Shown: positions 3,001-60,318 of the stretch, piece after piece | Layout of the letters: each line of letters opens with the position of its first letter | Numbering within the stretch: position 1 is the first letter of the stretch | From: Eledone cirrhosa | Taxonomy: Eukaryota | NCBI GenBank assembly: GCA_964016885.1 | Contig: OZ024764.1 | Location: 17,980,001 to 18,044,000, forward strand | Direction: 5' to 3' | Length of the DNA: 64,000 bases | Position numbers and translations under genes: made by a program | Notes under the pieces: model-generated | What the model saw: only the letters and a program-made list of their open reading frames with translations | Database searches by the model: none | Told to the model about the DNA's origin: nothing

Positions 3001-6000
3001 TAGTTAAGGCAGAAATGACTTCTACAAGAGTAAAACTCATTATAATAGGGGTATTAGTAGAGTATATGCCATATATAATGCAGAAATGGCTTCTAAATGC
3101 AGGGAACTCATTAATTCGATGGAAATAGTAGTGTATATCCAATATTTAATAGAGATACGGCTTCTACAGGACTAAAACTCATTAATATGATGGGTATTAG
3201 TAGAGTATATGCCATATTTAATACTGAAATGGCTTCTAAATGCATAAAACTCATTAATTCGATGGCAATATTAGTGTATATGCAATATTTAAGGCAGAAA
3301 TGACTTCTACAAGAGTAAAACTCATTAATATGAGGGGTATTAGTAGAGTATATGCCATATATAATGCAGAAATGGCTTCTAAATGCAGGGAACTCATTAA
3401 TTCGATGGAATTATTAGTGTATATGCCATATTTAATACAGAAATGGGTTCTAAAGGACTAGAACTCTTTAATTCCCATCAAATAGTAGTGTATATGCAAT
3501 ATTTAATACAGAAATGGCTTCTACAGGACTAAAACTCATTAATATGAGGGTTATTAGTAGAGTATATGCCATATTTAATATGGAAATGGCTTCTAAATGC
3601 AGGGAACTCATTAATTCGATGGAAATAGTAGTGTATATGCAATATTTAATACAGATATGGCTTCTACAGGACTAAAACTCATTAATATGAGGGTTATTAG
3701 TAGATTATATGCCATATTTACTATGGAAATGGCTTCTAAATGCATAAAACTCATTTATTCGATGGAAATAGTGGTGTATAAGCAATAATTAAGGCAGAAA
3801 TGACTTCTACAAGAGCAAAACTCATTAATATGAGGGGTATTAGTAGAGTATATGCCATATATAATGCAGAAATGGCTTCTAAATGCAGGGAACTCATTAA
3901 TTCGATGGAAATATTAGTGTATATGCCATATTTAATACAGAAATGGGTTCTAAAGACAAGAACTCCTTTAATTCCAATCAAATAGTACTGTATATGCAAT
4001 AATTAATGCAGAAATGGCTTCTACAAGAGTAAAACTCATAAATATGAGGGATATTAGTAGAGTATATGCCATATATAATACAGAAATGGCTTCTAAATGC
4101 AGGGAACTCATTAATTCGATGGAAATATTAGTGTATTTGCAATATTTAATACAGATATGGCTTCTACAGGACTAATACTCATTCATATGAGGGGTATTAG
4201 TAGAGTATATGCCATATATAATATAGAAATGGCTTCTAAATGCAGGGAACTAATTAATTCGATGGAAATAGTAGTGTATATGCAATATTTAATAGAGATA
4301 CGGCTTCTACAGGACTAAAACTCATTAATATGATGGGTATTAGTAGAGTATATGCCATATTTAATAAAGAAATGGCTTCTAAATGCATAAAACTCATTTA
4401 TTCAATGGAAATAGTAGTGTATATGCAATAATTAAGGCAGAAATGACTTCTACAAGAGTAAAACTCATTAATATGAGGGGTATTAGTAGAGTATATGCCT
4501 TATATAATGCAGAAATGGCTTCTAAATGCAGGGAACTCATTAATTCGATGGAAATATTAGTGTATATGCCATATTTAATACAGAAATGGGTTCTAAAGAC
4601 AAGAACTCCTTTAATTCCAATCAAATAGTAGTGTATATGCAATATTTAATACAGAAATGGCTTCTACAAGACTAATACTTATTAATATGAGGGGTATGAG
4701 TAGAGTATATGCCATATTTACTATGGAAATGGCTTGTAAATGCAGGGAACTCATTAATTCGATGGAAATATTAGTGTATATGCAATATTTAATACAGATA
4801 TGGCTTCTACAGGACTAATACTCATTCATATGAGGGGTATTAGTAGAGTATATGCCATATATAATACAGAAATGGCTTCTAAATGCAGGGAACTCATTAA
4901 TTCGAAGGAAATAGTAGTGTATATCCAATATTTAATAGAGATATGGCTTCTACAGGATTAAACTCATTAATATGAGGGGTATTAGTAGGTTATATGCCAT
5001 ATTTAATACAGAAATGGGTTCTAAAGGACTAGACCTCTTTAATTCCCATCAAATAGTAGTGTATATGCAATATTTAATACAGGAATGGCTTCTACAGGAC
5101 TAAAACTCATTAATATGAGGGTTACTACTAGAGTATATGCCATATTTAATACGGAAATGGCTTCGAAATGCAGGGAACTCATTAATTCGATGGAAATAGT
5201 AGTGTATATGCAATATTTAATAGAGATACGGCTTCTACAGGACTAAAACTCATTAATATGATGGGTATTAGTAGAGTATATGCCATATTTAATACAGAAA
5301 TGGCTTCTAAATGCATAAACCTCATTTATTCGATGGAAATAGTAGTGTATATGCAATGATTAAGGCAGAAATGACTTCTACAAGAGTAAAACTCATTAAT
5401 ATGAGGGGTATTTGTAGAGTATATGCCATATATAATGCAGAAATGGCTTCTAAATGCAGGGAACTCATTAATTCGATGGAAATATTAGTGTATATGCCAT
5501 ATTTAATACAGAAATGGGTTCTAAAGACAAGAACTCCTTTAATTCCAATCAAATAGTAGTGTATATGCAATATTTAATACAGAAATGGCTTCTACAAGAC
5601 TAATACTTATTAATATGAGGGGTATGAGTAGAGTATATGCCATATTTACTATGGAAATGGCTTGTAAATGCAGGGAACTCATTAATTCGATGGAAATATT
5701 AGTGTATATGCAATATTTAATACAGATATGGCTTCTACAGGACTAATACTCATTCATATGAGGGGTATTAGTAGAGTATATGCCATATATAATACAGAAA
5801 TGGCTTCTAAATGCAGGGAACTCATTAATTCGAAGGAAATAGTAGTGTATATCCAATATTTAATAGAGATATGGCTTCTACAGGATTAAACTCATTAATA
5901 TGAGGGGTATTAGTAGGTTATATGCCATATTTAATACAGAAATGGGTTCTAAAGGACTAGACCTCTTTAATTCCCATCAAATAGTAGTGTATATGCAATA

Positions 6001-9000
6001 TTTAATACAGGAATGGCTTCTACAGGACTAAAACTCATTAATATGAGGGTTACTACTAGAGTATATGCCATATTTAATACGGAAATGGCTTCGAAATGCA
6101 GGGAACTCATTAATTCGATGGAAATAGTAGTGTATATGCAATATTTAATAGAGATACGGCTTCTACAGGACTAAAACTCATTAATATGATGGGTATTAGT
6201 AGAGTATATGCCATATTTAATACAGAAATGGCTTCTAAATGCATAAACCTCATTTATTCGATGGAAATAGTAGTGTATATGCAATGATTAAGGCAGAAAT
6301 GACTTCTACAAGAGTAAAACTCATTAATATGAGGGGTATTTGTAGAGTATATGCCATATATAATGCAGAAATGGCTTCTAAATGCAGGGAACTCATTAAT
6401 TCGATGGAAATATTAGTGTATATGCCATATTTAATACAGAAATGGGTTCTAAAGGACTAGAACTCTTTAATTCCCATCAAATAGTAGTGTATATGCAATA
6501 TTTAATACAGAAATGGCTTCTACAGGACTAAAACTCATTAATATGAGGGTTATTAGTAGAGTATATGCCATATTTAATACAGAAATGGCTTCTAAATGCA
6601 GGGAACTCATTAATTCGATGGAAATAGTAGTGTATATGCAATATTTAATAGAGATACGGCTTCTACAGGACTAAAACTCATTAATATGATGGGTATTAGT
6701 AGAGTATATGCCATATATAATACAGAAATGGCTTCTAAATGCAGAAAAGTCATTTATTCGATGGAAATAGTAGTTTATATGCAATAATTAAGGCAGAAAT
6801 GACTTCTACAAGAGGAAAACCCATTAATATGAGGGATATTAGTTGAGTATATGCCATATATAATGCAGAAATGGCTTCTAGATCCAGGGAACTCATTAAT
6901 TCGATGGAAATATTAGTGTATATGCCATATTTAATACAGAAATGGGTTCTAAAGACAAGAACTCCTTTAATTCCAATCAAATAGTAGTGTACATGCAATA
7001 TTTAATACAGAAATGGCTTCTACAGGACTAATACTTATTAATATGAGGGGTATGAGTAGAGTATATGCCATATTTACTATGGAAATGGCTTGTGAATGCA
7101 GGGAACTCATTAATTCGATGGAAATATTAGTGTATATGCAATATTTAATACAGATATGGCTTCTACAGGACTAATACTCATTCATATGAGGGGTATTAGT
7201 AGAGTATATGCCATATATAATACAGAAATGGCTTCTAAATGCAGGGAACTCATTAATTCGATGGAAATATTAGTGTATATGCCATATTTAATACAGATAT
7301 GGCTTCTACAGGACTAAAACTCATTAATATGAGGGGTATTAGTAGAGTATATGCCATATATAATACTGAAATGGCTTCTAAATGCAGGGAACTCAGTAAT
7401 TCGATGGAAATAGTAGTGTATATCCAATATTTAATAGAGATATGGCTTCTACAGGATTAAACTCATTAATATGAGGGGTATTAGTAGATTATATGCCATA
7501 TTTAATACAGAAATGGGTTCTAAAGGACTAGACCTCTCTAATTCCCATCAAATAGTAGTGTATATGCAATATTTATTACAGGAATGGCTTCTACAGGACT
7601 AAAACTCATTAATATGAGGTTTACTAGTAGAGTATATGCCATATTTAATACGGAAATGGCTTCTAAATGCATAAAACTCATTTATTCGATGGAAATAGTA
7701 GTGTATATGCAATAATTAAGGCAGAAATGACTTCTACAAGAGTAAAACTCATTAATATGAGGGGTATTAGTAGAGTATATGCCATATATAATACTGAAAT
7801 GGCTTCTAAATGCAGGGAACTCATTAATTCGATGGAAATAGTAATGTATATGCAATATTTAATAGAGATACGGCTTCTACAGGACTAAAGCTCATTAATA
7901 TGATGGGTATTAGTAGAGTATATGCCATATTTAATACAGAAATGGCTTCTAAATGCATAAAACTCATTTATTCGATGGAAATAGTAGTGTATATGCAATA
8001 ATTAAGGCAGAAATGACTTCTACAAGAGTAAAACTCATTAATATGAGGGGTATTAGTAGAGTATATGCCATATATAATGCAGAAATAGCTTCTAAATGCA
8101 GGGAACTCATTAATTTGATGGAAATATTAGTGTATATGCCATTTTTAATACAGAAATGGGTTCTAAAGACAAGAACTCCTTTAATTCCAATCAAATATTA
8201 GTGTATATGCAATAATTAATGCAGAAATGGCTTCTACAAGAGTAAAACTCATTAATATGAGGGATATTAGTAGAGTATATGCCATATTTAATATGGAAAT
8301 GGCATCTAAATGCAGGGAACTCATTAATTCGATGGAAATAGTAGTGTATATGCAATATTTCATACAGATCTGGCTTTTACAGGACTAAAACTCATTAATA
8401 TGAGGGGTATTAGAAGATTATATGCCATATTTACTATGGAAATGGCTTCTAAATGCAGGGAACTCATTAATTCGATGGAAATATTAGTGTATATGCCATA
8501 TTTAATTCAGAAATGGGTTCTAAAGACAAGAACTCCTTTAATTCCAATCAAATAGTAGTGTATAGGCAATAATTAATGCAGAAATGGCTTCTACAAGAGT
8601 AAAACTCATTAATATGAGGGATATTAGTAGAGTATATGACATATTTAATATAGGAAATGGCTTCTAAATGCAGGGAACTCATTAATTCGATGGAAATAGT
8701 AGTGTATATGCAATATTTAATACAGATATGGCTTCTACAGGACTAAAACTCATTTATATGAGGGTTATTAGTAGAGTATATGCCATATTTAATATGGAAA
8801 TGGCTTCTAAATGCAGGGAACTCATTAATTCAATGGAAATAGTAGTGTATATGCAATATTTAATAGAGATACGGCTTCTACAGGACTACAACTCATTAAT
8901 ATGATGGGTATTAGTAGAGTATATGCCATATTTAATACAGAAATGGCTTCTAAATGCAGAAAACTCATTTATTCGATGGAAATAGTAGTGTATATGCAAT

Positions 9001-12000
9001 AATTAAGGCAGAAATGACTTCTACAAGAGTAAAACTCATTAATATGAGGGGTATTAGTAGAGTATATGCCATATATAATGCAGAAATGGCTTCTAAATGC
9101 AGGGAACTCATTAATTCGATGGAAATATTAGTGTATATGCCATATTTAATACAGAAATGGGTTCTAAAGACAAGAACTCCTTTAATTCCAATCAAATAGT
9201 AGTGTATATGCAATAATTAATCCAGAAATGGCTTCTACAAGAGTAAAACTCATAAATATGAGGGATATTAGTAGAGTATATGCCATATTTAATATGGAAA
9301 TGGCTTCTAAATGCAGGGAACTAATTAATTCGATGGAAATATTAGTGTATATGCCATATTTAATACAGAAATTGGTTCTACAGGACTAAAACTCATTCAT
9401 ATGAGGGGTAATAGTAGAGTATATGCCATATATAATACAGAAATGGCTTCTAAATGCAAAAAACTCATTTATTCGATGGAAATAGTAGTTTATATGCAAT
9501 AATTAAGGCAGAAATGACTTCTACAAGAGTAAAACTCATTAATATGACGGGTATTAGTTGAGTATATGCCATATATAATGCAGAAATGGCTTCTAGATCC
9601 AGGGAACTCATTAATTCGATGGAAATATTAGTGTATATGCCATATTTAATACAGAAATGGGTTCTAAAGGACTAGAACTCTTTAATTCCTATCAAATAGT
9701 AGTGTATATGCAATATTTAATACAGAACTGGCTTCTACGGGACTTAAAACTCATTAATATGAGGGTTATTAGTAGAGTATATGCCATATTTAATACAGAA
9801 ATGGCTTCTAAATGCAGGGAACTCATTAATTCGATGGAAATAGTAGTGTATATGCAATAATTTAATAGAGATACGGCTTCTACAGGACTAAAACTCATTA
9901 ATATGATGGGTATTAGTAGAGTATATGCCATATATAATACAGAAATGGCTTCTAAATGCAGAAAACTCATTTATTCGATGGAAATAGTAGTTTATATGCA
10001 ATAATTAAGGCAGAAATGACTTCTACAAGAGTAAAACTCATTAATATGAGGGGTATTAGTTGAGTATATGCCATATATAATGCAGAAATGGCTTCTAGAT
10101 CCAGGGAACTCATTAATTCGATGGAAATATTAGTGTATATGCCATATTTAATACAGAAATGGGTTCTAAGAAAAGAACTCCTTTAATTCCAATCAAATAG
10201 TAGTGTATATGCAATATTTAATACAGAAATGGTTTCTACAGGACTAATACTTATTAATATGAGGAGTATGAGTAGAGTATATGCCATATTTACTATGGAA
10301 ATGGCTTGTAAATGCAGGGAACTCATTAATTCGATGGAAATATTAGTGTATATGCAATATTTAATATAGATATGGCTTCTACAGGGACTAATACTCATTC
10401 ATATGAGGGGTATTAGTAGAGTATATGCCATATATAATACAGAAATGGCTTCTAAATGCAGGGAACTCATTAATTCGATGGAAATATTAGTGTATATGCC
10501 ATATTTAATACAGATATGGCTTCTACAGGACTAAAACTCATTAATATGAGGGGTATTAGTAGAGTATATGCCATATATAATACTGAAATGGCTTCTAAAT
10601 GCAGGGAACTCAGTAATTCGATGGAAATAGTAGTGTATATCCAATATTTAATAGAGATATGGCCTCTACAGGATTAAACTCGTTAATATGAGGGGTATTA
10701 GTAGATTATATGCCATATTAATACAGAAATGGGTTCTAAAGGACTAGACCTCTTTAATTCCCATCAAATAGTAGTGTATATGCAATATTTAATACAGGAA
10801 TGGCTTCTACAGGACTAAAACTCATTAATATGAGGGTTACTAGTAGAGTATATGCCATATTTAATACGGAAATGGCTTCTAAATGCAGGGAACTCATTAA
10901 TTCGATGGAAATAGTAATGTTTATGCAATATTTAATAGAGATACGGCTTCTACAGGACTAAAGCTCATTAATATGATGGGTATTAGTAGAGTATATGCCA
11001 TATATAATACAGAAATGGCTTCTAAATGCAGGGGAACTCATTAATTCGAAGGAAATAGTAGTGTATATCCAATATTTAATAGAGATATGGCTTCTACAGG
11101 ATTAAACTCATTAATATGAGGGGTATTAGTAGGTTATATGCCATATTTAATACAGAAATGGGTTCTAAAGGACTAGACCTCTTAATTCCCATCAAATAGT
11201 AGTGTATATGCAATATTTAATACAGGAATGGCTTCTACAGGACTAAAACTCATTAATATGAGGGTTACTAGTAGAGTATATGCCATATTTAATATGGAAA
11301 TGGCTTCTAAATGCAGGGAACTAATTAATTCGATGGAAATATTAGTGTATATGCCATATTTAATACAGAAATTGGTTCTACAGGACTAAAACTCATTCAT
11401 ATGAGGGGTAATAGTAGAGTATATGCCATATATAATACAGAAATGGCTTCTAAATGCAGGGAACTCATTAATTCGATGGAAATATTAGTGTATTTGCAAT
11501 ATTTAATACAGATATGGCTTCTACAGGACTAATACTCATTCATATGAGGGGTATTAGTAGAGTATATGCCATATATAATATAGAAATGGCTTCTAAATGC
11601 AGGGAACTCATTAATTCGATGGAAATAGTAGTGTATATGCAATATTTAATAGAGATACGGCTTCTACAGGGACTAAAACTCATTAATATGATGGGTATTA
11701 GTAGAGTATATGCCATATTTAATAAAGAAATGGCTTCTAAATGCATAAAACTCATTTATTCGATGGAAATAGTAGTGTATATGCAATAATTAAGCAGAAA
11801 TGACTTCTACAAGAGTAAAACTCATTAATATGAGGGGTATTAGTAGAGTATATGCCTTATATAATGCAGAAATGGCTTCTAAATGCAGGGAACTCCATTA
11901 ATTCGATGGAAATATTAGTGTATATGCCATATTTAATACAGAAATGGGTTCTAAAGACAAGAACTCCTTTAATTCCAATCAAATAGTAGTGTATATGCAA

Positions 12001-15000
12001 TAATAATGCAGAAATTGCTTCTACAAGAGTAAAACTCATAAATATGAGGGATATTAGTAGAGTATATGCCATATTTAATACAGAAATGGCTTCTAAATGC
12101 AGGGAACTCATTAATTCGATGGAAATAGTAGTGTATATGCAATATTTAATAGAGATACGGCTTCTACAGGACTAAAACTCATTAATATGATGGGTATTAG
12201 TAGAGTATATGTCATATATAATACAGAAATGGCTTCTAAATGCAGAAAACTCATTTATTCGATGGAAATAGTAGTTTATATGCAATAATTAAGGCAGAAA
12301 TGACTTCTACAAGAGTAAAACTCATTAATATGACGGGTATTAGTTGAGTATATGCCATATATAATGCAGAAATGGCTTCTAGATCCAGGGAACTCATTAA
12401 TTCGATGGAAATATTAGTGTATATGCCATATTTAATACAGAAATAGATTCTAAAGACAAGAACTCCTTTAATTCCAATCAAATAGTAGTGTATATGCAAT
12501 ATTTAATACAGAAATGGCTTCTACAGGACTAATACTTATTAATATGAGGGGTATGAGTAGAGTATATGCCATATTTACTATGGAAATGGCTTGTAAATGC
12601 AGGGAACTCATTAATTCGATGGAAATATTAATGTATATGCAATATTTAATACAGATATGGCTTCTACAGGACTAATACTCATTCATATGAGGGGTATTAG
12701 TAGAGTATATGCCATATATAATACAGAAATGGCTTCTAAATGCAGGGGAACTCATTAATTCAAAGGAAATAGTAGAGTATATCCAATATTTAATAGAGAT
12801 ATGGCTTCTACAGGATTAAACTCATTAATATGAGGGGTATTAGTAGGTTATATGCCATATTTAATACAGAAATGGGTTCTAAAGGACTAGACCTCTTTAA
12901 TTCCCATCAAATAGTAGTGTATATGCAATATTTAATACAGGAATGGCTTCTACAGGACTAAAACTCATTAATATGAGTGTTACTAGTAGAGTATATGCCA
13001 TATTTAATACGGAAATGGCTTCGAAATACAGGGAACTCATTAATTCGATGGAAATAGTAGTGTATATGCAATATTTAATAGAGATACGGCTTCTACAGGA
13101 CTAAAACTCATTAATATGATGGGTATTAGTAGAGTATATGCCATATTTAATACAGAAATGGCTTCTAAATGCATAAAACTCATTTATTCGATGGAAATAG
13201 TAGTGTATATGCAATAATTAAGGCAGAAATGACTTCTACAAGAGTAAAACTCATTAATATGAGGGGTATTAGTAGAGTATATGCCATATATAATGCAGAA
13301 ATGGCTTCTAAATGCAGGGAACTCATTAATCGATGGAAATATTAGTGTATATGCCATATTTAATACAGAATGGGTTCTAAAGACAAGAAACACCTTTAAT
13401 TCCAATCAAATAGTAGTGTATATGCAATATTTAATGCAGAAATGGCTTCTACAAGAGTAAAACTCATTAATATGAGGGATATTAGTAGAGTATATGCCAT
13501 ATTTAATATGGAAATGGCTTCTAAATGCAGGGAACTCATTAATTCGATGGAAATAGTAGTGTATATGCAATATTTCCTACAGATATGGCTTCTACGGGAC
13601 TAAAACTCATTAATATGATGGGTATTAGTAGATTATATGCCATATTTACTATGGAAATGGCTTCTAAATGCAGGTAACTCATTAATTGGATGAAAATATT
13701 AGTGTATATGCAATATTTAAGGCAGAAATGACTTCTACAAGAGTAAAACTCATTAATATGAGGGGTATTAGTAGAGTATATGCCATATATAATGCAGAAA
13801 TGGCTTCTAAATGCAGGGAACTCATTAATTCGATGGAAATATTAGTGTATATGCCATATTTAATACAGAAATGGGTTCTAAAGGACTAGAACTCTTTAAT
13901 TCCTATCAAATAGTAGTGTATATGCAATATTTAATACAGAACTGGCTTCTACGGGACTAAAACTCATTAATATGAGGGTTATTAGTAGAGTATATGCCAT
14001 ATTTAATACAGAAATGGCTTCTAAATGTAGGGAACTCATTAATTCGATGGAAATAGTAGTGTATATGCAATATTTAATAGAGATACGGCTTCTACAGGAC
14101 TAAAACTCATTAATATGATGGGTATTAGTAGAGTATATGCCATATATAATACAGAAATGGCTTCTAAATGCAGAAAACTCATTTATTCGATGGAAATAGT
14201 AGTTTATATGCAATAATTAAGGCAGAAATGACTTCTACAAGAGTAAAACTCATTAATATGAGGGGTATTAGTTGAGTATATGCCATATATAATGCAGAAT
14301 GGCTTCTAGATCCAGGGAACTCATTAATTCGATGGAAATATTAGTGTATATGCCATATTTAATACAGAAATGGGTTCTAAAGACAAGAACTCCTTTAATT
14401 CCAATCAAATAGTAGTGTATATGCAATATTTAATACAGAAATGGCTTCTACAGGACTAATACTTATTAATATGAGGAGTATGAGTAGAGTATATGCCATA
14501 TTTACTATGGAAATGGCTTCTAAATGCAGGGAACTCATTAATTCGATGGAAATAGTAATGTATATGCAATATTTAATAGAGATACGGCTTCTACAGGACT
14601 AAAGCTCATTAATATGATGGGTATTAGTAGAGTATATGCCATATATAATACAGAAATGGGCTTCTAAATGCAGGGAACTCATTAATTCGAAGGAAATAGT
14701 AGTGTATATCCAATATTTAAATAGAGATATGGCTTCTACAGGATTAAACTCATTAATATGAGGGGTATTAGTAGGTTATATGCCATATTTAATACAGAAA
14801 TGGGTTCTAAAGGACTAGACCTCTTTAATTCCCATCAAATAGTAGTGTATATGCAATATTTAATACAGGAATGGCTTCTACAGGACTAAAACTCATTAAT
14901 ATGAGGGATACTAGTAGAGTATATGCCATATTTAATACGGAAATGGCTTCGAAATGCAGGGAACTCATTAATTCGATGGAAATAGTAGTGTATATGCAAT

Positions 15001-18000
15001 ATTTAATAGAGATACGGCTTCTACAGGACTAAAACTCATTAATATGATGGGTATTAGTAGAGTATATGCCATATTTAATACAGAAATGGCTTCTAAATGC
15101 ATAAAACTCATTTATTCGATGGAAATAGTAGTGTATAAGCAATAATTAAGGCAGAAATGACTTCTACAAGAGTAAAACTCATTAATATGAGGGGTATTAG
15201 TACAGTATATGCCATATATAATGCAGAAATGGCTTCTAAATGCAGGGAACTCATTAATTCGATGGAAATATTAGTGTATATGCCATATTTAATACAGAAA
15301 TGGGTTCTAAAGACAAGAACTCCTTTAATTCCAATCAAATAGTAGTGTATATGCAATAATTAATGCAGAAATGGCTTCTACAGAGTAAAACTCATTAATA
15401 TGAGGGATATTAGTAGAGTATATGCCATATTTAATATGGAAATGGCTTCTAAATGCAGGGAACTCATTAATTCGATGGAAATAGTAGTGTATATGCAATA
15501 TTTCCTACAGATATGGCTTCTACAGGACTAAAACTCATTAATATGAGGGGTATTAGTAGATTATATGCCATATTTACTATGGAAATGGCTTCTAAATGCA
15601 GGTAACTCATTAATTCGATGGAAATATTAGTGTATATGCAATATTTAAGGCAGAAATGACTTCTACAAGAGTAAAACTCATTAATATGAGGGGTATTAGT
15701 AGAGTATATGCCATATATAATGCAGAAATGGCTCCTAAATGCAGGGAACTCATTAATTCGATGGAAATATTAGTGTATATGCCATATTTAATACAGAAAT
15801 GGGTTCTAAAGGACTAGAACTCTTTAATTCCTATCAAATAGTAGTGTATATGCAATATTTAATACAGAAATGGCTTCTACAGGACTAATACTTATTAATA
15901 TGAGGAGTATGAGTAGAGTATATGCCATATTTACTATGGAAATGGCTTGTAAATGCAGGGAACTCATTAATTCGATGGAAATATTAGTGTATATGCAATA
16001 TTTAATACAGATATGGCTTCTACAGGACTAATACTCATTCATATAAGGGGTATTAGTAGAGTATATGCCATATATAATACTGAAATGGCTTCTAAATGCA
16101 GGGACTCAGTAATTCGATGGAAATAGTAGTGTATATCCAATATTTAATAGAGATATGGCCTCTACAGGATTAAACTCGTTAATATGAGGGGTATTAGTAG
16201 ATTATATGCCATATTTAATACAGAAATGGGTTCTAAAGGACTAGATCTCTTTAATTCCCATCAAATAGTAGTGTATATGCAATATTTAATACAGGAATGG
16301 CTTCTACAGGACTAAAACTCATTAATATGAGGGTTACTAGTAGAGTATATGCCATATTTAATACGGAAATGGCTTCTAAATGCAGGGAACTCATTAATTC
16401 GATGGAAATAGTAATGTATATGCAATATTTAATAGAGATACGGCTTCTACAGGACTAAAGCTCATTAATATGATGGGTATTAGTAGAGTATATGCCATAT
16501 ATAATACAGAAATGGCTTCTAAATGCAGGGAACTCATTAATTCGAAGGAAATAGTAGTGTATATCCAATATTTAATAGAGATATGGCTTCTACAGGATTA
16601 AACTCATTAATATGAGGGGTATTAGTAGGTTATATGCCATATTTAATACAGAAATGGGTTCTAAAGGACTAGACCTCTTTAATTCCCATCAAATAGTAGT
16701 GTATATGCAATATTTAATACAGGAATGGCTTCTACAGGACTAAAACTCATTAATATGAGGGTTACTAGTAGAGTATATGCCATATTTAATACGGAAATGG
16801 CTTCGAAATGCAGGGAACTCATTAATTCGATGGAAATAGTAGTGTATATGCAATATTTAATAGAGATACGGCTTCTACAGGACTAAAACTCATTAATATG
16901 ATGGGTATTAGTAGAGTATATGCCATATTTAATACAGAAATGGCTTCTAAATGCATAAAACTCATTTATTCGATGGAAATAGTAGTGTATAAGCAATAAT
17001 TAAGGCAGAAATGACTTCTACAAGAGTAAAACTCATTAATATGAGGGGTATTAGTAGAGTATATGCCATATATAATGCAGAAATGGCTTCTAAATGCAGG
17101 GAACTCATTAATTCGATGGAAATATTAGTGTATATGCCATATTTAATACAGAAATGGGTTCTAAAGACAAGAACACCTTTAATTCCAATCAAATAGTAGT
17201 GTATATGCAATAATTAATGCAGAAATGGCTTCTACAAGAGTAAAACTCATTAATATGAGGGATATTAGTAGAGTATATGCCATATTTTAATATGGAAATG
17301 GCTTCTAAATGCAGGGAACTCATTAATTCGATGGAAATAGTAGTGTATATGCAATATTTCCTACAGATATGGCTTCTACAGGACTAAAACTCATTAATAT
17401 GAGGGGTATTAGTAGATTATATGCCATATTTACTATGGAAATGGCTTCTAAATGCAGGTAACTCATTAATTCGATGGAAATATTAGTGTATATGCAATAT
17501 TTAAGGCAGAAATGACTTCTACAAGAGTAAAACTCATTAATATGAGGGGTATAGTAGAGTATATGCCATATATAATGCAGAAATGGCTTCTAATGCAGGG
17601 AACTCATTAATTCGATGGAAATATTAGTGTATATGCCATATTTAATACAGAAATGGGTTCTAAAGGACTAGAACTCTTTAATTCCTATCAAATAGTAGTG
17701 TATATGCAATATTTAATACAGAAATGGCTTCTACGGGACTAAAACTCATTAATATGAGGGTTATTAGTAGAGTATATGCCATATTTAATACAGAAATGGC
17801 TTCTAAATGCAGGGAACTCATTAATTCGATGGAAATAGTAGTGTATATGCAATATTTAATAGAGATACGGCTTCTACAGGACTAAAACTCATTAATATGA
17901 TGGGTATTAGTAGAGTATATGCCATATATAATACAGAAATGGCTTCTAAATGCAGAAAACTCATTTATTCGATGGAAATAGTAGTTTATATGCAATAATT

Positions 18001-21000
18001 AAGGCAGAAATGACTTCTACAAGAGTAAAACTCATTAATATGAGGGGTATTAGTTGAGTATATGCCATATATAATGCAGAAATGGCTTCTAGATCCAGGG
18101 AACTCATTAATTCGATGGAAATATTAGTGTATATGCCATATTTAATATAGAAATGGGTTCTAAAGACAAGAACTCCTTTAATTCCAATCAAATAGTAGTG
18201 TATATGCAATATTTAATACAGAAATGGCTTCTACAGGACTAATACTTATTAATATGAGGAGTATGAGTAGAGTATATGCCATATTTACTATGGAAATGGC
18301 TTGTAAATGCAGGGAACTCATTAATTCGATGGAAATATTAGTGTATATGCAATATTTAATACAGATATGGCTTCTACAGGACTAATACTCATTCATATGA
18401 GGGGTATTAGTAGAGTATATGCCATATATAATACAGAAATGGCTTCTAAATGCAGGGAACTCATTAATTCGATGGAAATATTAGTGTATATGCCATATTT
18501 AATTCAGAAATGGGTTCTAAAGACAAGAACTCCTTTAATTCCAATCAAATAGTAGTGTATATGCAATATTTAATACAGAAATGGCTTCTACAGGACTAAT
18601 ACTCATTAATATGAGGGGTATGAGTAGAGTATATGCCATATTTACTATGGAAATGGATTCTAAATGCAGGAACTCATTAATTCGATGGAAATATTAGTGT
18701 ATATGCCATATTTAATACAGAAATGGGTTCTAAAGACAAGAACTCCTTCAATTCCAATCAAATAGTAGTGTATATGCAATAATTAATGCCGAAATGGCTT
18801 CTACAAGAGTAAAACTCATTAATATGAGGGATAATTTAATATAGGAAATGGCTTCTAAATGCAGGGAACTCATTAATTCGATGGAAATAGTAGTGTATAT
18901 GCAATATTTAATACAGATATGGCTTCTACAGGACTAAAACTCATTTATATGAGGGTTATTAGTAGAATATATGCCATATTTAATATGGAAATGGCTTCTA
19001 AATGCAGGGAACTCATTAATTCAATGGAAATAGTAGTGTATATGCAATATTTAATAGAGATACGGCTTCTACAGGACTACAACTCATTAATATGATGGGT
19101 ATTAGTAGAGTATATGCCATATTTAATACAGAAATGGCTTCTAAATGCAGAAAACTCATTTATTCGATGGAAATAGTAGTGTATATGCAATAATTAAGGC
19201 AGAAATGACTTCTACAAGAGTAAAACTCATTAATATGAGGGGTATTAGTAGAGTATATGCCATATATAATGCAGAAATGGCTTCTAAATGCAGGGAACTC
19301 ATTAATTCGATGGAAATATTAGTGTATATGCCATATTTAATACAGAAATGGGTTCTAAAGACAAGAACTCCTTTAATTCCAATCAAATAGTAGTGTATAT
19401 GCAATAATTAATCCAGAAATGGCTTCTACAAGAGTAAAACTCATAAATATGAGGGATATTAGTAGAGTATATTCCATATTTAATATGGAAATGGCTTCTA
19501 AATGCATGGAACTCATTAATTCGATGGAAATAGTAGTGTATATGCAATATTTAATACAGATATGGCTTCTACAGGACTAAACCTCATTAATATGAGGGGT
19601 ATTAGTAGATTATACGCCATATTTACTATGGAAATCGCTTCTAAATGCAGGGAACTCATTAATTCGATGGAAATATTAGTGTATATGCAATATTTAATAC
19701 AGATATGGCTTCTACAGGACTAATACTCATTCATATGAGGGGTATTAGTAGAGTATATGCCATATATAATACAGAAATGGCTTCTAAATGCAGGGAACTC
19801 ATTAATTCGATGGAAATATTAGTGTATATGCCATATTTAATACAGATATGGCTTCTACAGGACTAAAACTCATTAATATGAGGGGTATTAGTAGAGTATA
19901 TACCATATATAATACTGAAATGGCTTCTAAATGCAGGGAACTCAGTAATTCGATGGAAATAGTAGTGTACATCCAATATTTAATAGAGATATGGCTTCTA
20001 CAGGATTAAACTCGTTAATATGAGGGGTATTAGTAGATTATATGCCATATTTAATACAGAAATGGGTTCTAAAGGACTAGACCTCTTTAATTCCCATCAA
20101 ATAGTAGTGTATATGCAATATTTAATACAGGAATGGCTTCTACAGGACTAAAACTCATTAATATGAGGGTTACTAGTAGAGTATATGCCATATTTAATAC
20201 GGAAATGGCTTCTAAATGCAGGGAACTCATTAATTCGATGGAAATAGTAGTGTATATGCAATATTTAATAGAGATACGGCTTCTACAGGACTAAAACTCA
20301 TTAATATGATGGGTATTATTAGAGTATATGCCATATTTAATACAGAAATGGCTTCTAAATGCATAAAACTCATTTATTCGATTGAAATAGTAGTGTATAT
20401 GCAATAATTAAGGCAGAAATGACTTCTACAAGAGTAAAACTCATTAATATGAGGGGTATTAGTAGAGTATATGCCATATATAATGCAGAAATAGCTTCTA
20501 AATGCAGGGAACTCATTAATTTGATGGAAATATTAGTGTATATGCCATATTTAATACAGAAATGGGTTCTAAAGACAAGAACTCCTTTAATTCCAATCAA
20601 ATAGTAGTGTATATGCAATAATTAATGCAGAAATGGCTTCTACAAGAGTAAAACTCATTAATATGAGGGATATTAGTAGAGTATATGCCATATTTAATAT
20701 GGAAATGGCATCTAAATGCAGGGAACTCATTAATTCGATGGAAATAGTAGTGTATATGCAATATTTCCTACAGATATGGCTTCTACAGGACTAAAACTCA
20801 TTAATATGAGGGGTATTAGTAGATTATATGCCATATTTACTATGGAAATGGCTTCTAAATGCAGGTAACTCATTAATTCGATGGAAATATTAGTGTATAT
20901 GCAATATTTAAGGCAGAAATGACTTCTACAAGAGTAAAACTCATTAATATGAGGGGTATTAGTAGAGTATATGCCATATATAATGCAGAAATGGCTTCTA

Positions 21001-24000
21001 AATGCAGAAAACTCATTTATTCGATGGAAATAGTAGTTTATATGCAATAATTAAGGCAGAAATGACTTCTACAAGAGTAAAACTCATTAATATGAGGGGT
21101 ATTAGTTGAGTATATGCCATATATAATGCAGAAATGGCTTCTAAATGCAGGGACCTCATTAATTCGATGGAAATATTAGTGTATATGCCATATTTAATAC
21201 AGAAATGGGTTCTAAAGGACTAGAACTCTTTAATTCCTATCAAATAGTAGTGTATATGCAATATTTAATACAGAAATGGCTTCTACAGGACTAATACTTA
21301 TTAATATGAGGAGTATGAGTAGAGTATATGCCATATTTACTATGGAAATGGCTTGTAAATGCAGGGAACTCATTAATTCGATGGAAATATTAGTGTATAT
21401 GCAATATTTAATACAGATATGGCTTCTACAGGACTAATACTCATTCATATGAGGGGTATTAGTAGAGTATATGCCATATATAATACTGAAATGGCTTCTA
21501 AATGCAGGGAACTCAGTAATTCGATGGAAATAGTAGTGTATATCCAATATTTAATAGAGATATGGCCTCTACAGGATTAAACTCGTTAATATGAGGGGTA
21601 TTAGTAGATTATATGCCATATTTAATACAGAAATGGGTTCTAAAGGACTAGATCTCTTTAATTCCCATCAAATAGTAGTGTATATGCAATATTTAATACA
21701 GGAATGGCTTCTACAGGACTAAAACTCATTAATATGAGGGTTACTAGTAGAGTATATGCCATATTTAATACGGAAATGGCTTCTAAATGCAGGGAACTCA
21801 TTAATTCGATGGAAATAGTAATGTATATGCAATATTTAATAGAGATACGGCTTCTACAGGACTAAAGCTCATTAATATGATGGGTATTAGTAGAGTATAT
21901 GCCATATATAATACAGAAATGGCTTCTAAATGCAGGGAACTCATTAATTCGAAGGAAATAGTAGTGTATATCCAATATTTAATAGAGATATGGCTTCTAC
22001 AGGATTAAACTCATTAATATGAGGGGTATTAGTAGGTTATATGCCATATTTAATACAGAAATGGGTTCTAAAGGACTAGACCTCTTTAATTCCCATCAAA
22101 TAGTAGTGTATATGCAATATTTAATACAGGAATGGCTTCTACAGGACTAAAACTCATTAATATGAGGGTTACTAGTAGAGTATATGCCATATTTAATACG
22201 GAAATGGCTTCGAAATGCAGGGAACTCATTAATTCGATGGAAATAGTAGTGTATATGCAATATTTAATAGAGATACGGCTTCTACAGGACTAAAACTCAT
22301 TAATATGATGGGTATTAGTAGAGTATATGCCATATTTAATACAGAAATGGCTTCTAAATGCATAAAACTCATTTATTCGATGGAAATAGTAGTGTATAAG
22401 CAATAATTAAGGCAGAAATGACTTCTACAAGAGTAAAACTCATTAATATGAGGGGTATTAGTAGAGTATATGCCATATATAATGCAGAAATGGCTTCTAA
22501 ATGCAGGGAACTCATTAATTCGATGGAAATATTAGTGTATATGCCATATTTAATACAGAAATGGGTTCTAAAGACAAGAACACCTTTAATTCCAATCAAA
22601 TAGTAGTGTATATGCAATAATTAATGCAGAAATGGCTTCTACAAGAGTAAAACTCATTAATATGAGGGATATTAGTAGAGTATATGCCATATTTAATATG
22701 GAAATGGCTTCTAAATGCAGGGAACTCATTAATTCGATGGAAATATTAGTGTATATGCAATATTTAAGGCAGAAATGACTTCTACAAGAGTAAAACTCAT
22801 TAATATGAGGGGTATTAGTAGAGTATATGCCATATATAATGCAGAAATGGCTTCTAAATGCAGGGAACTCATTAATTCGATGGAAATATTAGTGTATATG
22901 CCATATTTAATACAGAAATGGGTTCTAAAGGACTAGAACTCTTTAATTCCTATCAAATAGTAGTGTATATGCAATATTTAATACAGAAATGGCTTCTACG
23001 GGACTAAAACTCATTAATATGAGGGTTATTAGTAGAGTATATGCCATATTTAATACAGAAATGGCTTCTAAATGCAGGGAACTCATTAATTCGATGGAAA
23101 TAGTAGTGTATATGCAATATTTAATAGAGATACGGCTTCTACAGGACTAAAACTCATTAATATGATGGGTATTAGTAGAGTATATGCCATATATAATACA
23201 GAAATGGCTTCTAAATGCAGAAAACTCATTTATTCGATGGAAATAGTAGTTTATATGCAATAATTAAGGCAGAAATGACTTCTACAAGAGTAAAACTCAT
23301 TAATATGAGGGGTATTAGTTGAGTATATGCCATATATAATGCAGAAATGGCTTCTAGATCCAGGGAACTCATTAATTCGATGGAAATATTAGTGTATATG
23401 CCATATTTAATATAGAAATGGGTTCTAAAGACAAGAACTCCTTTAATTCCAATCAAATAGTAGTGTATATGCAATATTTAATACAGAAATGGCTTCTACA
23501 GGACTAATACTTATTAATATGAGGAGTATGAGTAGAGTATATGCCATATTTACTATGGAAATGGCTTGTAAATGCAGGGAACTCATTAATTCGATGGAAA
23601 TATTAGTGTATATGCAATATTTAATACAGATATGGCTTCTACAGGACTAATACTCATTCATATGAGGGGTATTAGTAGAGTATATGCCATATATAATACA
23701 GAAATGGCTTCTAAATGCAGGGAACTCATTAATTCGATGGAAATATTAGTGTATATGCCATATTTAATTCAGAAATGGGTTCTAAAGACAAGAACTCCTT
23801 TAATTCCAATCAAATAGTAGTGTATATGCAATATTTAATACAGAAATGGCTTCTACAGGACTAATACTCATTAATATGAGGGGTATGAGTAGAGTATATG
23901 CCATATTTACTATGGAAATGGATTCTAAATGCAGGAACTCATTAATTCGATGGAAATATTAGTGTATATGCCATATTTAATACAGAAATGGGTTCTAAAG

Positions 24001-27000
24001 ACAAGAACTCCTTCAATTCCAATCAAATAGTAGTGTATATGCAATAATTAATGCCGAAATGGCTTCTACAAGAGTAAAACTCATTAATATGAGGGATAAT
24101 TTAATATAGGAAATGGCTTCTAAATGCAGGGAACTCATTAATTCGATGGAAATAGTAGTGTATATGCAATATTTAATACAGATATGGCTTCTACAGGACT
24201 AAAACTCATTTATATGAGGGTTATTAGTAGAATATATGCCATATTTAATATGGAAATGGCTTCTAAATGCAGGGAACTCATTAATTCAATGGAAATAGTA
24301 GTGTATATGCAATATTTAATAGAGATACGGCTTCTACAGGACTACAACTCATTAATATGATGGGTATTAGTAGAGTATATGCCATATTTAATACAGAAAT
24401 GGCTTCTAAATGCAGAAAACTCATTTATTCGATGGAAATAGTAGTGTATATGCAATAATTAAGGCAGAAATGACTTCTACAAGAGTAAAACTCATTAATA
24501 TGAGGGGTATTAGTAGAGTATATGCCATATATAATGCAGAAATGGCTTCTAAATGCAGGGAACTCATTAATTCGATGGAAATATTAGTGTATATGCCATA
24601 TTTAATACAGAAATGGGTTCTAAAGACAAGAACTCCTTTAATTCCAATCAAATAGTAGTGTATATGCAATAATTAATCCAGAAATGGCTTCTACAAGAGT
24701 AAAACTCATAAATATGAGGGATATTAGTAGAGTATATTCCATATTTAATATGGAAATGGCTTCTAAATGCATGGAACTCATTAATTCGATGGAAATAGTA
24801 GTGTATATGCAATATTTAATACAGATATGGCTTCTACAGGACTAAAACTCATTAATATGAGGGGTATTAGTAGATTATACGCCATATTTACTATGGAAAT
24901 CGCTTCTAAATGCAGGGAACTCATTAATTCGATGGAAATATTAGTGTATATGCAATATTTAATACAGATATGGCTTCTACAGGACTAATACTCATTCATA
25001 TGAGGGGTATTAGTAGAGTATATGCCATATATAATACAGAAATGGCTTCTAAATGCAGGGAACTCATTAATTCGATGGAAATATTAGTGTATATGCCATA
25101 TTTAATACAGATATGGCTTCTACAGGACTAAAACTCATTAATATGAGGGGTATTAGTAGAGTATATACCATATATAATACTGAAATGGCTTCTAAATGCA
25201 GGGAACTCAGTAATTCGATGGAAATAGTAGTGTACATCCAATATTTAATAGAGATATGGCTTCTACAGGATTAAACTCATTAATATGAGGGGTATTAGTA
25301 GATTATATGACATATTTAATACAGAAATGGGTTCTAAAGGACTAGACCTCTTTAATTCCCATCAAATAGTAGTGTATATGCAATATTTAATACAGGAATG
25401 GCTTCTACAGGACTAAAACTCATTAATATGAGGGTTACTAGTAGAGTATATGCCATATTTAATACGGAAATGGCTTCAAAATGCAGGGAACTCATTAATT
25501 CGATGGAAATAGTAGTGTATATGCAATATTTAATAGAGATACGGCTTCTACAGGACTAAAACTCATTAATATGATCGGTATTAGTAGAGTATATGCCATA
25601 TTTAATACAGAAATGGCTTCTAAATGCAGAAAACTCATTTATTCGATGGAAATAGTAGTTTATATGCAATAATTAAGGCAGAAATGACTTCTACAAGAGT
25701 AAAACTCATTAATATGAGGGGTATTAGTTGAGTATATGCCATATATAATGCAGAAATGGCTTCTAGATCCAGGGAACTCATTAATTCGATGGAAATATTA
25801 GTGTATATGCCATATTTAATACAGAAATGGGTTCTAAAGACAAGAACTCCTTTAATTCCAATCAAATAGTAGTGTATATGCAATATTTAATACAGAAATG
25901 GCTTCTACAGGACTAATACTTATTAATATGAGGGGTATGAGTAGAGTATATGCCATATTTACTATGGAAATGGCTTGTAAATGCAGGGAACTCATTAATT
26001 CGATGGAAATATTAGTGTATATGCAATATTTAATACAGATATGGCTTCTACAGGACTAATACTCATTCATATGAGGGGTATTAGTAGAGTATATGCCATA
26101 TATAATACAGAAATGGCTTCTAAATGCAGGGAACTCATTAATTCGATGGAAATATTAGTGTATATGCCATATTTAATACAGATATGGCTTCTACAGGACT
26201 AAAACTCATTAATATGAGGGGTATTAGTAGAGTATATGCCATATATAATACTGAAATGGCTTCTAAATGCAGGGAACTCAGTAATTGGATGGAAATAGTA
26301 GTGTATATCCAATATTTAATAGAGATATGGCTTCTACAGGATTAAACTCGTTAATATGAGGGGTATTAGTAGATTATATGCCATATTTAATACAGAAATG
26401 GGTTCTAAAGGACTAGACCTCTTTAATTCCCATCAAATAGTAGTGTATATGCAATATTTAATACAGGAATGGCTTCTACAGGACTAAAACTCATTAATAT
26501 GAGGGTTACTAGTAGAGTATATGCCATATTTAATACGGAAATGGCTTCTAAATGCAGGGAACTCATTAATTCGATGGAAATAGTAGTGTATATGCAATAT
26601 TTAATAGAGATACGGCTTCTACAGGACTAAAACTCATTAATATGATGGGTATTATTAGAGTATATGCCATATTTAATACAGAAATGGCTTCTAAATGCAT
26701 AAAACTCATTTATTCGATTGAAATAGTAGTGTATATGCAATAATTAAGGCAGAAATGACTTCTACAAGAGTAAAACTCATTAATATGAGGGGTATTAGTA
26801 GAGTATATGCCATATATAATGCAGAAATAGCTTCTAAATGCAGGGAACTCATTAATTTGATGGAAATATTAGTGTATATGCCATATTTAATACAGAAATG
26901 GGTTCTAAAGACAAGAACTCCTTTAATTCCAATCAAATAGTAGTGTATATGCAATAATTAATGCAGAAATGGCTTCTACAAGAGTAAAACTCATTAATAT

Positions 27001-27759
27001 GAGGGATATTAGTAGAGTATATGCCATATTTAATATGGAAATGGCATCTAAATGCAGGGAACTCATTAATTCGATGGAAATAGTAGTGTATGTGCAATAT
27101 TTCATACAGATCTGGCTTCTACAGGACTAAAACTCATTAATATGAGGGGTATTAGTAGATTATATGCCATATTTACTATGGAAATGGCTTCTAAATGCAG
27201 GGAACTCATTAATTGGATGGAAATATTAGTGTATATGCAATATTTAAGGCAGAAATGACTTCTACAAGAGTAAAACTCATTAATATGAGGGGTATTAGTA
27301 GAGTATATGCCATATATAATGCAGAAATGGCTTCTAAATGCAGGGAACTCATTAATTCGATGGAAATATTAGTGTATATGCCATATTTAATACAGAAATG
27401 GGTTCTAAAGGACTAGAACTCTTTAATTCCCATCAAATAGTAGTGTATATGCAATATTTAATACAGAAATGGCTTCTACAGGACTAAAACTCATTAATAT
27501 GAGGGTTATTAGTAGAGTATATGCCATATTTAATACAGAAATGGCTTCTAAATGCAGGGAACTCATTAATTCGATGGAAATAGTAGTGTATATGCAATAT
27601 TTAATAGAGATACGGCTTCTACAGGACTAAAACTCATTAATATGATGGGTATTAGTAGAGTATATGCCATATTTAATACAGAAATGGCTTCTAAATGCAG
27701 AAAACTCATTTATTCGATGGAAATAGTAGTTTATATGCAATAATTAAGGCAGAAATGAC
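1..27759 (+). repeat. Satellite DNA array, 71/72-bp monomers (about 385-390 copies), several monomer types, often as ~143-bp dimers; continues beyond the window's left edge
   Basis: Continuous tandem units such as CAGAAATGGCTTCTAAATGCAGGGAACTCATTAATTCGATGGAAATAGTAGTGTATATGCAATATTTAATA (71 bp), GAGATACGGCTTCTACAGGACTAAAACTCATTAATATGATGGGTATTAGTAGAGTATATGCCATATTTAATA (72 bp) and variants with AAGACAAGAACTCCTTTAATTCCAATC or AAGGACTAGAACTCTTTAATTCCCATC. Confidence 0.98.
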
Positions 27760-29413
27760 ATATACACTACTATTTCCATCGAATAAATGAGTTTTCTGCA
27801 TTTAGAAGCCATTTCTGTACTAAATATGGCATATACTCTATTAATACCCCTCATATTAATGAGTATTAGTCCTGTATAAGCCATATATGTATTAAATATT
27901 GCATATACACTAATATTTCCATCGGATTAATGAGTTCTCTGCATTTAGAAGCCATTTCATATTAAATATAGCATATAATCAACTAATACCCCTCATATTA
28001 ATGAGTTTTAGTCCTGTTGAAGCCATATCTGTATTAAATATTGGATATACACTACTATTTCTATCGAATAAATGAGTTCTCTGCATTTAGAAGCCATTTC
28101 TGTATTAAATATGGCATATACTTTACTAATACCCCTCATATTAATGAGTTTTAGTCCTGTGGAAGCCATATCCCTATTAAATATTGCATATACACTACTA
28201 TTTCCATCGAATTAATGAGTTCCCTGCATTTAGAAGCCATTTCCATATTAAACATGGCATACAAATACCCCTCATATTAATGAGTTTCACTCCTGTAGAA
28301 GCCATTTCTGCATTATTTATTGCATATACACTATTATTTCCATCGAATAAATGACTTCCTGCATTTAGAAGCCATTTCTGTACTAAATATAACATAAACT
28401 CTACTAATACCACTCACATTGATGAGTATTAGTCCTGTAGAAGCCATAGGTGTATTATATATTGCATATACACTAATATTTCCATCAAATCAACGAGTTC
28501 CTTGCATTTAGAAGCCATTTCCATAATAAATATGGCATATAATCTACTAATACTCCTTATATTAATGAGCTTTACTCTTGTAGAAGCCATTTCTGTATTA
28601 AATATTGCTTATACACTACTATTTCCATCGAATAAATGAATTCTCTGCATTTAGAAGTTATTTCCATATTAAATATGGCATATAATCTACTAATACTCCT
28701 CACATTAATGAGTTATACTCTTGTAGAAGCCATTTCTGCATTAATTATTGCATATACACTATTATTTCCATCGAATAAATGAATTTTCTGCATTTAGAAG
28801 CCATTTCTGTATTAAATATGGCATATAATCTACTAATACCACTCATATTGATGAGTATTAGTCCTGTAGATGCCATTTCTGTATTAAATATTGGATATAC
28901 ACTACTATTTCCATGAGTTCTCTGCATTTAGAAGCCATTTGTGTATTAAATATGGCATATACTCTACTGAGTTTTAGTCCTGTAGAAGCCATATCTCTAT
29001 TAAATATTGCATATACACTACTATTTCCATCGAATTAATGAGTTCCCTGCATTTAGAACCATTTCCATATTAAATATGGTATATACTCTACTAATACCCC
29101 TAATATTAATGAGTTTTAGTCCTTTAGAAGCCATTTCTGCATTAATTATTGCATATACACTACTATTTCCATCGAATAAATGAGTTTTCTGCATTTAGAA
29201 GCCATTTCTGTACTAAATATGGCATATAATGTACTAATACCATTCATATTGATTAGTATTAGTCCTGTATAAGCCATAGCTGTATTATATATTGCATATA
29301 CACTAATATTTCCATCGAATTATTGCCATTTCCATATTAAATATGGCATATAATCTACTAATACCCCTGATATTAATGAGTTTTACTCTTGTAGAAGCCA
29401 TTTCTGTATTAAA
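27760..29413 (-). repeat. Inverted, more diverged block of the same satellite
   Basis: Sequence switches to the reverse complement (CATATACACTACTATTTCCATCGAATAAATGAG...) at 27759/27760 and back at ~29414; more substitutions and small deletions than the main array. Confidence 0.95.
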
Positions 29414-29957
29414 CCTCAATACAGAAATGGTTTGTTAAGTGCTAAAGCTCATTAATTCGAAGGAAATAGTACATTATATGCAATATTTAATAAAGAAATT
29501 TCTTCTAAAGGACTAGAACTTTCAATTCAAAGGAAATAGTAGTATATATGTAATATTTATTACAGAAATGGCTTCGTAAACACTAGAACTCTTTAATTTG
29601 AAGAGTATTAGTAGAGTATATGCAATATTTAATACACAAATTGTTTCTAAAAGAGTAGAACTCTTCAGTTCTAAGGAAATATTAGATTGTATGCTATATT
29701 TAATACAGAAATTGCTTCTGAAGGAGTAGAACTCTTTAGTTCGAAGGAAATAGAGTATATACAATATTTAATACAGAAATGGGATCTCCAGAACTAGAAC
29801 TGTTACATTCTAAAGAAATGGTAGTGTATATGCAATAATTAATAATGAAATAGCTTGTACAAGTCTAGAACTCTTTAATCCAAAGGAAATAAAATAGTAT
29901 TTGCAATATTCAATACAGAAATGTCTTCTACAGTGCAACAACTCATTACTTCGAAGG
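29414..29957 (+). repeat. Highly diverged terminal monomers of the satellite (old edge layer)
   Basis: About 7-8 degenerate ~71-bp units retaining AATACAGAAAT...CTAGAACTCTTTAATTC..AGGAAATAGTAG. Confidence 0.88.
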
Positions 29958-45522: not shown

Positions 45523-45562
<40 letters not shown>

Positions 45563-59822: not shown

Positions 59823-60201
59823 ATCAATAAAAGATCCGAGGCCATATTCAGTTGATTCAGCTTTATTTAAAATCCATTTTATATATTTCGCGGAGGATTA
59901 TCAGTTATGATTGCCCAGGCTCATATATATATATTTATTGTTATACTTTGGGAGGGTCATGCTGCCATTAGAAACACATGCACCTGTTGAATTTCACTTC
60001 AGTTTATTATAAGTTTCTGGTTGGTAGAAACAACCATTATCATCAATATCTGTTTCAACACACGTTTTCAGATGAGAAATCTCACAAAACAAATTCAAAA
60101 ACGAATACATATATATAAGTTTATCCCAGGTTCAATCAGGTGTAACCACTGTAAGTAAGGTACTCAATACAAAGCAGAGTGTAAATATTTAATATAGAAA
60201 A

Positions 60202-60252
60202 GGCTTCTACAGGACGAGAACTGTTTCATTCAGGAGAAATCATCAGGAAGCC
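60202..60252 (-). ncRNA. Type I hammerhead ribozyme motif, homologous to the satellite monomer
   Basis: Minus strand GGCTTC-CTGATGA-TTTC TCCT GAAT-GAAA-CAG TTCTCGTC CTG-TA-GAAGCC: perfect 6-bp stem I, intact CUGAUGA and GAAA core, stem III CAG/CTG, GUA cleavage triplet; stem II is weak. Confidence 0.72.
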
Positions 60253-60318
60253 GACTGTCCAAGTAAAACAGTTCTAGTCTTGTAGAAGCCTTTTCTATAT
60301 TATATATATATAATATAG

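Follow-up and report, generated by a model that had tools for sequence, protein, structure and literature searches.

Type I hammerhead ribozymes have been described in the pLTRs of Penelope-like elements (PLEs) by Cervera and De la Pena 2014 (PMC4209133), and the family reported here shares with them the type I core in the pLTRs, thousands of dispersed single motifs, pairs of motifs on opposite strands, a palindromic loop III suited to dimers and an extra base after A9. For pLTR hammerheads with such a loop, action as dimers and weak cleavage in vitro are described in the same paper. With the Hydra-clade PLEs (10.1101/2021.04.23.441226) the family has in common a C-terminal GIY-YIG domain, the DKT motif, a CxCx5C linker, the hammerhead, insertion into (TA)n, an inverted 5'-truncated copy and a tail at one end; the insertion shape with its inverted 5'-truncated copy is the one given there by Craig et al. 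Tandem repeats have also been traced to PLE termini. Animal non-LTR retrozymes and the hammerhead satellites of newts, Schistosoma and Dolichopoda (PMC7229834) share with the satellite studied here an apparent tandem derivation from the PLE pLTR region, and the birth of retrozymes by a step from pLTR to tandem has been proposed in a preprint (10.64898/2026.07.22.740005). Penelope elements have been given as a source of satellites (PMC12692304; also for Harttia), and, as in transposon-derived satellites in general, a sub-sequence of one element appears here to have been tandemised into arrays.

The window analysed in this work is a stretch of 64,000 nucleotides from Eledone cirrhosa on contig C25 of a 3.0 Gb genome; its features are collected in Table 1. 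The main satellite block has a dimer period of 143 and higher periods of 357 and 500 (TRF, autocorrelation). Read on the minus strand, its unit corresponds to the 3' half of a pLTR hammerhead plus part of the tail. The size of 30 kb previously given for the satellite was too small: the array at 1-29957 runs about 19.5 kb further upstream of the window, to a total of at least ~49 kb. Arrays of the same satellite were found on C1, C8, C9, C13, C18, C20-22, C24-26 and C28, that is, on at least 12 chromosome-size contigs, and the junction motif of the monomers had 806 exact matches genome-wide (control 0). Contigs from two sequencing runs of one organism cover the satellite (729 + 49 contigs); for a second organism the comparison extended to 2 gapped contigs.

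Table 1. Features of the window (position 1 is its first nucleotide)
Feature	Position	Strand	Evidence
Satellite, main block, 71/72-nt units	1..27757	+	TRF, autocorrelation, 399 window monomers scored
Satellite, inverted block	27759..29413	-	TRF, alignment
Satellite, terminal block, more diverged	29418..29957	+	TRF, alignment
Direct arm of 5'-truncated Penelope-type element (pLTR 3' end + tail), beside short (TA)n	60118..60265	-	85% identity over 130 nt to L283 pLTR
Stretch homologous to one satellite monomer (68 nt; 71 nt in donor subfamily)	60172..60239	+	alignment
Type I hammerhead	60202..60252	-	sequence, fold energies, covariation
Inverted arm, further truncated, tailless, followed by (TA)n	60266..60301	+	34/36 match, usual Penelope insertion shape

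Several arrays lie close to contig ends, on C1 (1.1 Mb), C9 (0.2 Mb), C13 (46.8 of 47.3 Mb), C26 (1.2-1.8 Mb) and C28 (2.5 Mb), and other arrays are internal to contigs, not near the ends. A second satellite of short period adjoins many arrays (flanks of L043, L122, L126, L309, L310 and L312, on C22 and C24). It has the words AAATGGCT and AAATGACTAAAA in common with the 71-mer and may be a daughter repeat of it. Identical flanks were seen among arrays (L033, L035, L042, L052; L057, L129; C18 5-11.8 Mb), which points to segmental duplications within C18 as well as between C18 and C25.

The 69 nt that the preliminary description had quoted as a solitary hammerhead, ancestral to the satellite, were located at 60184-60252. 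Their gapless match over 55 nt to satellite monomers was reproduced: the best score, 44/55, was obtained at 29763 in the terminal block, which thus contains the monomer nearest to the dispersed element, and 409 further places reached at least 33/55 (mostly 37-41; one of them is the element's own inverted copy). Dinucleotide shuffles did not exceed 35/55 (mean 28.4, n=300), and the local score of 55 against the array consensus dimer was reached by none of 2000 shuffles, the maximum being 31. The truncated inverted copy was also confirmed (60266-60301 against 60191-60226, with the identity listed in Table 1), and the shape formed by the two arms recurs in 30 fetched loci. Its inverted ends in TA might suggest a MITE, but this reading was rejected: copies differ in their point of inversion, one arm carries a tail, and longer copies reach the pLTRs.

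On the minus strand the motif has the type I order. Stem I consists of 6 bp (60252-60247 with 60207-60202), followed by the CUGAUGA box (60246-60240), a stem II region (60239-60228) in which stem II has only 3 bp over a U-U pair, GAAA (60227-60224), stem III (60224-60209; 4 bp with an 8-nt loop) and the UH box (60209-60208). The predicted cut site is after 60208. Of the claim that this is a complete type I hammerhead, the boxes (CUGAUGA, GAAA and GUA), stem I and stem III stand, stem II not having been listed there; the minimum free energy (MFE) fold, on the other hand, is not a hammerhead (z -0.17; -9.0 kcal/mol for the hammerhead fold versus -11.2 for the MFE fold). An Rfam search returned no hammerhead family at the gathering threshold or at E<=10, and the miRNA-model matches at the element reflect its inverted repeat only. 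A change in loop III private to the window copy disrupts the palindrome of the family. Since it halves the predicted energy of the stem III dimer (-5.9 kcal/mol versus -12.8 in the autonomous copy), the window copy may be a poor ribozyme.

Several other repeats were noted in the window. Another type I hammerhead-like motif, unrelated to the element, runs from 60803 down to ~60750 on the minus strand, with CUGAUGA, a long stem II, GAAAC, a short stem III, GUA and a 7-bp stem I; a similar copy in L141 indicates that it belongs to another dispersed family. Directly to the right of the element, at 60337-60705 on the plus strand, there is a LINE-type reverse transcriptase fragment (RVT_1 E 0.0013), which by its motifs we take to be RTE-like. 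It was considered as a part of the element and discarded, its motifs not being Penelope-like and no link to the hammerhead family being found. A tRNA-derived SINE-like repeat at 37193-37250 on the minus strand (Rfam tRNA, 32 bits) is repeated in many loci, and similar repeats lie at ~31450, 39760-40065 and 45560-45920.

The hammerhead is far from solitary. Besides the second motif ~550 nt away, its core had 26,475 exact matches genome-wide (reversed control 0), and a DNA search gave 3190 candidates, of which the 40 scored places besides the window itself were 83-89% identical. In the 30 fetched loci a tailed direct arm adjoins (TA)n and then flips, at variable points, to a shorter inverted arm; 25 of these loci have the tail on the direct arm, and 3 have it on the other. 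Pairs of cores on opposite strands and at most 50 nt apart numbered 15 among the first 100 matches listed, indicating that insertions often break just 5' of the core. The window's own subfamily is non-coding and has a fixed end ~445 nt from the tail in most of the 30 loci, where an attempt to walk 5' from it to an open reading frame also stopped. The window element is a truncated inverted insertion of this ~445-nt non-coding subfamily.

Subfamilies vary in loop II and at position 7, and they carry compensatory variants of stem I (GGCTTC/GAAGCC, AGATTC/GAATCT and AGCTTC/GAAGCT). Covariation was assessed on 27 distinct rows of 29 aligned sequences, namely 28 of 50 picked copies plus the window copy; subfamilies with a bulged stem, and copies that had indels or were cut at their ends, were excluded. 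In this set 95.4% of the cells are paired, and in two pairs of stem I both partners are replaced (GC/AU and CG/AU). Stem I lay outside the pattern used to pick the copies; that pattern predetermined stem II and most of the core, which are uninformative for this reason. The three hammerhead helices are compatible with the observed covariation, which is informative for stem I, where the compensatory changes reflect few events. Further minimal hammerhead families were noticed in L012, L014, L020, L081, L118, L139, L147, L154, L181 and other loci; in L154 the hammerhead directly follows the end of a GIY-YIG ORF.

The link to Penelope proteins was found as well. Among 20 regions around a GIY-YIG frame, 12 from the first 30 loci (partly picked for nearby family sequence) and 8 chosen for long frames, 19 contain an exact family core and all 20 contain family sequence; in the 19 the cores occupy the direct and inverted pLTR positions. 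A search with the GIY-YIG fragment of L157 led to 150 scored near-identical copies, many of them in long open frames. The full plan is seen in L283, with an inverted hammerhead at 203, a hammerhead at 1752, a frame of 758 codons at 1792-4065 and a hammerhead at 6452, so that a single ORF with reverse transcriptase and C-terminal GIY-YIG lies between pLTRs. The YRDD and GIY-YIG-like motifs of this frame were read by eye; Pfam gave GIY-YIG with E 0.026, below the cut-off, and no match to RVT_1, and a PDB search with the L283-type ORF returned nothing meaningful. Two motifs of the Hydra clade, SDKT (the DKT motif) and CNCLNKEAC (the CxCx5C linker), are present in P0001. In the CCHH region of the endonuclease, inspected by eye, the core contains two Cys, and the final His is seemingly replaced. 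The inverted 5'-truncated copy, the tail at one end and the (TA)n target of that clade were likewise found. Judged by its motifs, the autonomous member of the family is a probable Hydra-clade PLE. The pLTR of the autonomous L283 is the reference for the window element in Table 1 and is 83% identical to that of L169, a copy whose loop II reads CUUC; the CUUC-loop subfamily yielded no autonomous copy of its own. The Hydra-type element of L253-L302 is abundant (61,799 candidates), with 98-100% protein identity among 150 scored, and is very young; a long region rich in (TA/TG)n separates its stop codon from the 3' pLTR. PLE ORF fragments in L070, L078, L083, L149 and L154 were rejected as partners, being unlinked to the window-type hammerhead.

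The CUUC-loop sister subfamily appears to be the donor of the satellite. Its core had 830 exact matches and the motif with its tail word TAGTAG had 413 (control 0 in both cases), and loop and tail word occur together on one copy, L147/L169. Counted from the TAGTAG word up to the CUGAUGA box, which is not included, L169 has 71 nt, exactly the monomer length; the monomer junction falls directly before the box, and a 1-nt microhomology bounds the 71-nt donor stretch there. When the consensuses of 24 arrays (1304 monomers) were projected on the columns of L169, in which small indels could be hidden, the best identities were 69/71 (C24, 8.90 Mb), 69/71 (C24, 3.77 Mb) and 68/71 (C22, 20.69 Mb), and the series continued through 67 and 65 down to 59/71 in the window array. 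The C24 and C22 arrays are thus nearer to the dispersed family, and some of them retain GAAAC. A founding locus, in which the tail would be joined to an array or an array to a core, was not found among the fetched loci. In the CUUC-loop subfamily (L133-L162) the 5' strand of stem I has one extra U (bulge) relative to other subfamilies.

L169 and the window copy differ at 13 sites; at 12 of these, including a 3-nt indel, the monomers agree with L169, and the remaining site is a change private to L169. The preliminary description had proposed the window copy itself as the ancestor; on these sites it would be a cousin of the donor instead. The broader proposal, that the satellite arose from a hammerhead-bearing Penelope terminus, was supported by the analysis: the dispersed family, the RT/GIY-YIG link and the intermediate arrays were all found. 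Both the 69/71 identity to L169 and the arrays on many chromosomes are what a transposon-derived satellite presents.

The fate of the ribozyme core had been described as loss by mutation, CTGATGA changing to CTACTA and GAAA to TAAA/TAAT. Only the second change could be upheld. CTACTA is the reverse complement of the donor tail word TAGTAG, which means that the CUGAUGA box and the 5' strand of stem I lay outside the duplicated piece; as the word lies exactly one monomer length before the start of the box, the box was cut off by the junction. In agreement with this, a CUGANGA box in register at the monomer start was found in 0 of 1304 monomers (8 loose matches lie elsewhere in the unit). GAAA did decay: it is retained in 19 of the 1304, with 8/18 in the C22 20.69 Mb array and 0/399 in the window, and the whole 3' half of the hammerhead is intact in 5. 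At the array ends neither a pLTR tail nor a following core was found, apart from two spurious matches inside arrays. Array orientation switches in both directions, several arrays have common flanks or adjoin another short satellite, and the flanks are not consistently (TA)n; the two-way switches and common flanks point to growth at the DNA level. The satellite unit probably had no ribozyme activity from its birth onwards, and it probably spread at the DNA level.

In a tree of 72 columns, the bootstrap of which had not settled, the 24 satellite consensuses all group with dispersed copies of CUUC or CUUU loop in one clade (99/83); the window array belongs to a derived subclade (99/94), and the window copy is placed outside the larger clade. 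By the AU test on the same columns, a clade of satellite plus window copy was not rejected (p 0.08). Satellite monophyly is compatible with the data (AU p 0.80), and the one-clade satellite tree was 8.45 lnL better than the tree from the free search. Monomers diverge by 13-20% from their own array consensus, compared with ~10% (median 6%; 24/30 usable) for donor-subfamily copies, ~7% (29/30 and 22/30 usable) in the window's subfamily and 2.7% (33/33 usable) for the autonomous pLTR. The comparison of monomers with donor copies runs against a simple timing from element to satellite; the excess could reflect a faster satellite clock, a long-lived conserved master, or the choice of young copies by exact patterns.

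Taken together, and as far as sequence comparison can tell, we consider it very likely that the satellite is a tandemised 71-nt piece of the pLTR of a hammerhead-bearing Penelope-like element, which probably lacked CUGAUGA from the start and probably never cleaved itself. The Penelope-like family has type I hammerheads in its pLTRs, its truncated and non-coding subfamilies leave the more than 26,000 cores, and the CUUC/TAGTAG sister subfamily contains the 71-nt stretch that equals the ancestral monomer. A single duplication of this stretch may have founded the satellite, either by a jump of the reverse transcriptase close to the hammerhead, a frequent break point of insertions, or through DNA repair. 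Arrays would then have expanded and spread as DNA through inversion, segmental duplication and unequal exchange; the GAAA box and the stems, being free of constraint, decayed as the arrays grew.

The same units might instead descend from a tandem of intact hammerheads, a small retrozyme that was amplified first and lost its core afterwards through point mutation and homogenisation. The decay of GAAA along the gradient by point change is what such a history would give. We nevertheless regard it as unlikely, given that the junction word is the donor tail word, that the unit length is exactly the distance from word to core, that the unit is too short to include the 5' strand of stem I and that the box is missing throughout; a founder of greater length, later shortened by a precise deletion, would be needed, and none was seen in the arrays examined. 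Spread of the satellite as RNA by means of Penelope enzymes, in the manner of a core-less non-autonomous retrozyme, is very unlikely: it could draw on the inverted blocks of several arrays and on the part of the pLTR 3' end included in the unit, yet the switches occur in both orientations, no array end has a pLTR tail, the flanks are common between arrays or consist of another satellite rather than consistently of (TA)n, and the monomers are 13-20% diverged.

Descent of the satellite directly from the window copy or its subfamily, with local seeding of the nearby array, is still less probable and is largely refuted by the diagnostic sites, which with their 3-nt indel favour the other subfamily. 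The AU test leaves this grouping standing and the copy lies 30 kb from the array, but with about one core per 110 kb a copy at most 30 kb away is unremarkable, and the window array is among the most derived, the most ancestral ones being on C22 and C24. The opposite direction, in which the element took up a monomer of the satellite and derived its hammerhead from this monomer, would fit the greater distance of monomers than of dispersed copies from their consensus; we give it almost no credence. Across all subfamilies, the autonomous and distant ones among them, the stretch is collinear with the flanks on either side, and the satellite has no catalytic box, which favours the direction from element to satellite; moreover, the satellite is nested in the diversity of the element, beside one subfamily. 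The origin from a core-less pLTR piece thus remains the reading that we prefer.

The unit holds the 3' strand of stem II, GAAA, stem III, the cleavage triplet and the 3' strand of stem I, exactly the substrate half of a split hammerhead. Hammerheads split into two strands are familiar from in vitro work. Conceivably, though we rate the chance as slim, transcripts of the least decayed arrays are cut in trans by RNA of Penelope termini, or serve as decoys or sources of small RNA. If so, the satellite would regulate, or be processed by, a parent retroelement with more than 26,000 termini. With only 5 of 1304 halves intact and a stem II of 3 bp, any role in trans would be mostly past.

Compared with the described systems, the family and its satellite differ in several respects. 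In the PLE hammerheads of PMC4209133 stem II has 6-8 bp with G10.1-C11.1, whereas here it has 3 bp over U-U; the stem III of 4 bp with an 8-nt loop is a further difference from them. Relative to the Hydra-clade PLEs, the 3' region is long and rich in microsatellites (~2.4 kb from the stop codon to the 3' hammerhead in L283), and the unit therefore exceeds the '<3 kb' stated in 10.1101/2021.04.23.441226. Retrozymes are described as having a complete hammerhead in each ~300-nt unit (PMC7229834, 10.64898/2026.07.22.740005); the satellite has units of 71 nt without CUGANGA and, lacking complete hammerheads, falls outside the definition of non-LTR retrozymes. It is neither a new ribozyme class nor a functional ribozyme satellite, and it is of modest size. 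In searches of mainly openly available literature, no report of this repeat or of a half-hammerhead satellite was found. Penelope-derived satellites are already known; what appears to be new is the origin at base level and the exclusion of the core. Relative to other transposon-derived satellites, in the accounts available, the donor subfamily, both breakpoints and the graded arrays can be resolved here to the base, and the piece is half a ribozyme. Satellite birth is usually deduced from patchy homology, whereas here donor, breakpoints and a series of arrays from 69/71 to 59/71 coexist in one genome. A Penelope terminus with its whole hammerhead gives rise to retrozymes; one with a junction that leaves out CUGAUGA would give an ordinary DNA satellite. 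This contrast makes it testable whether the integrity of the ribozyme decides between spread at the RNA level and spread at the DNA level.
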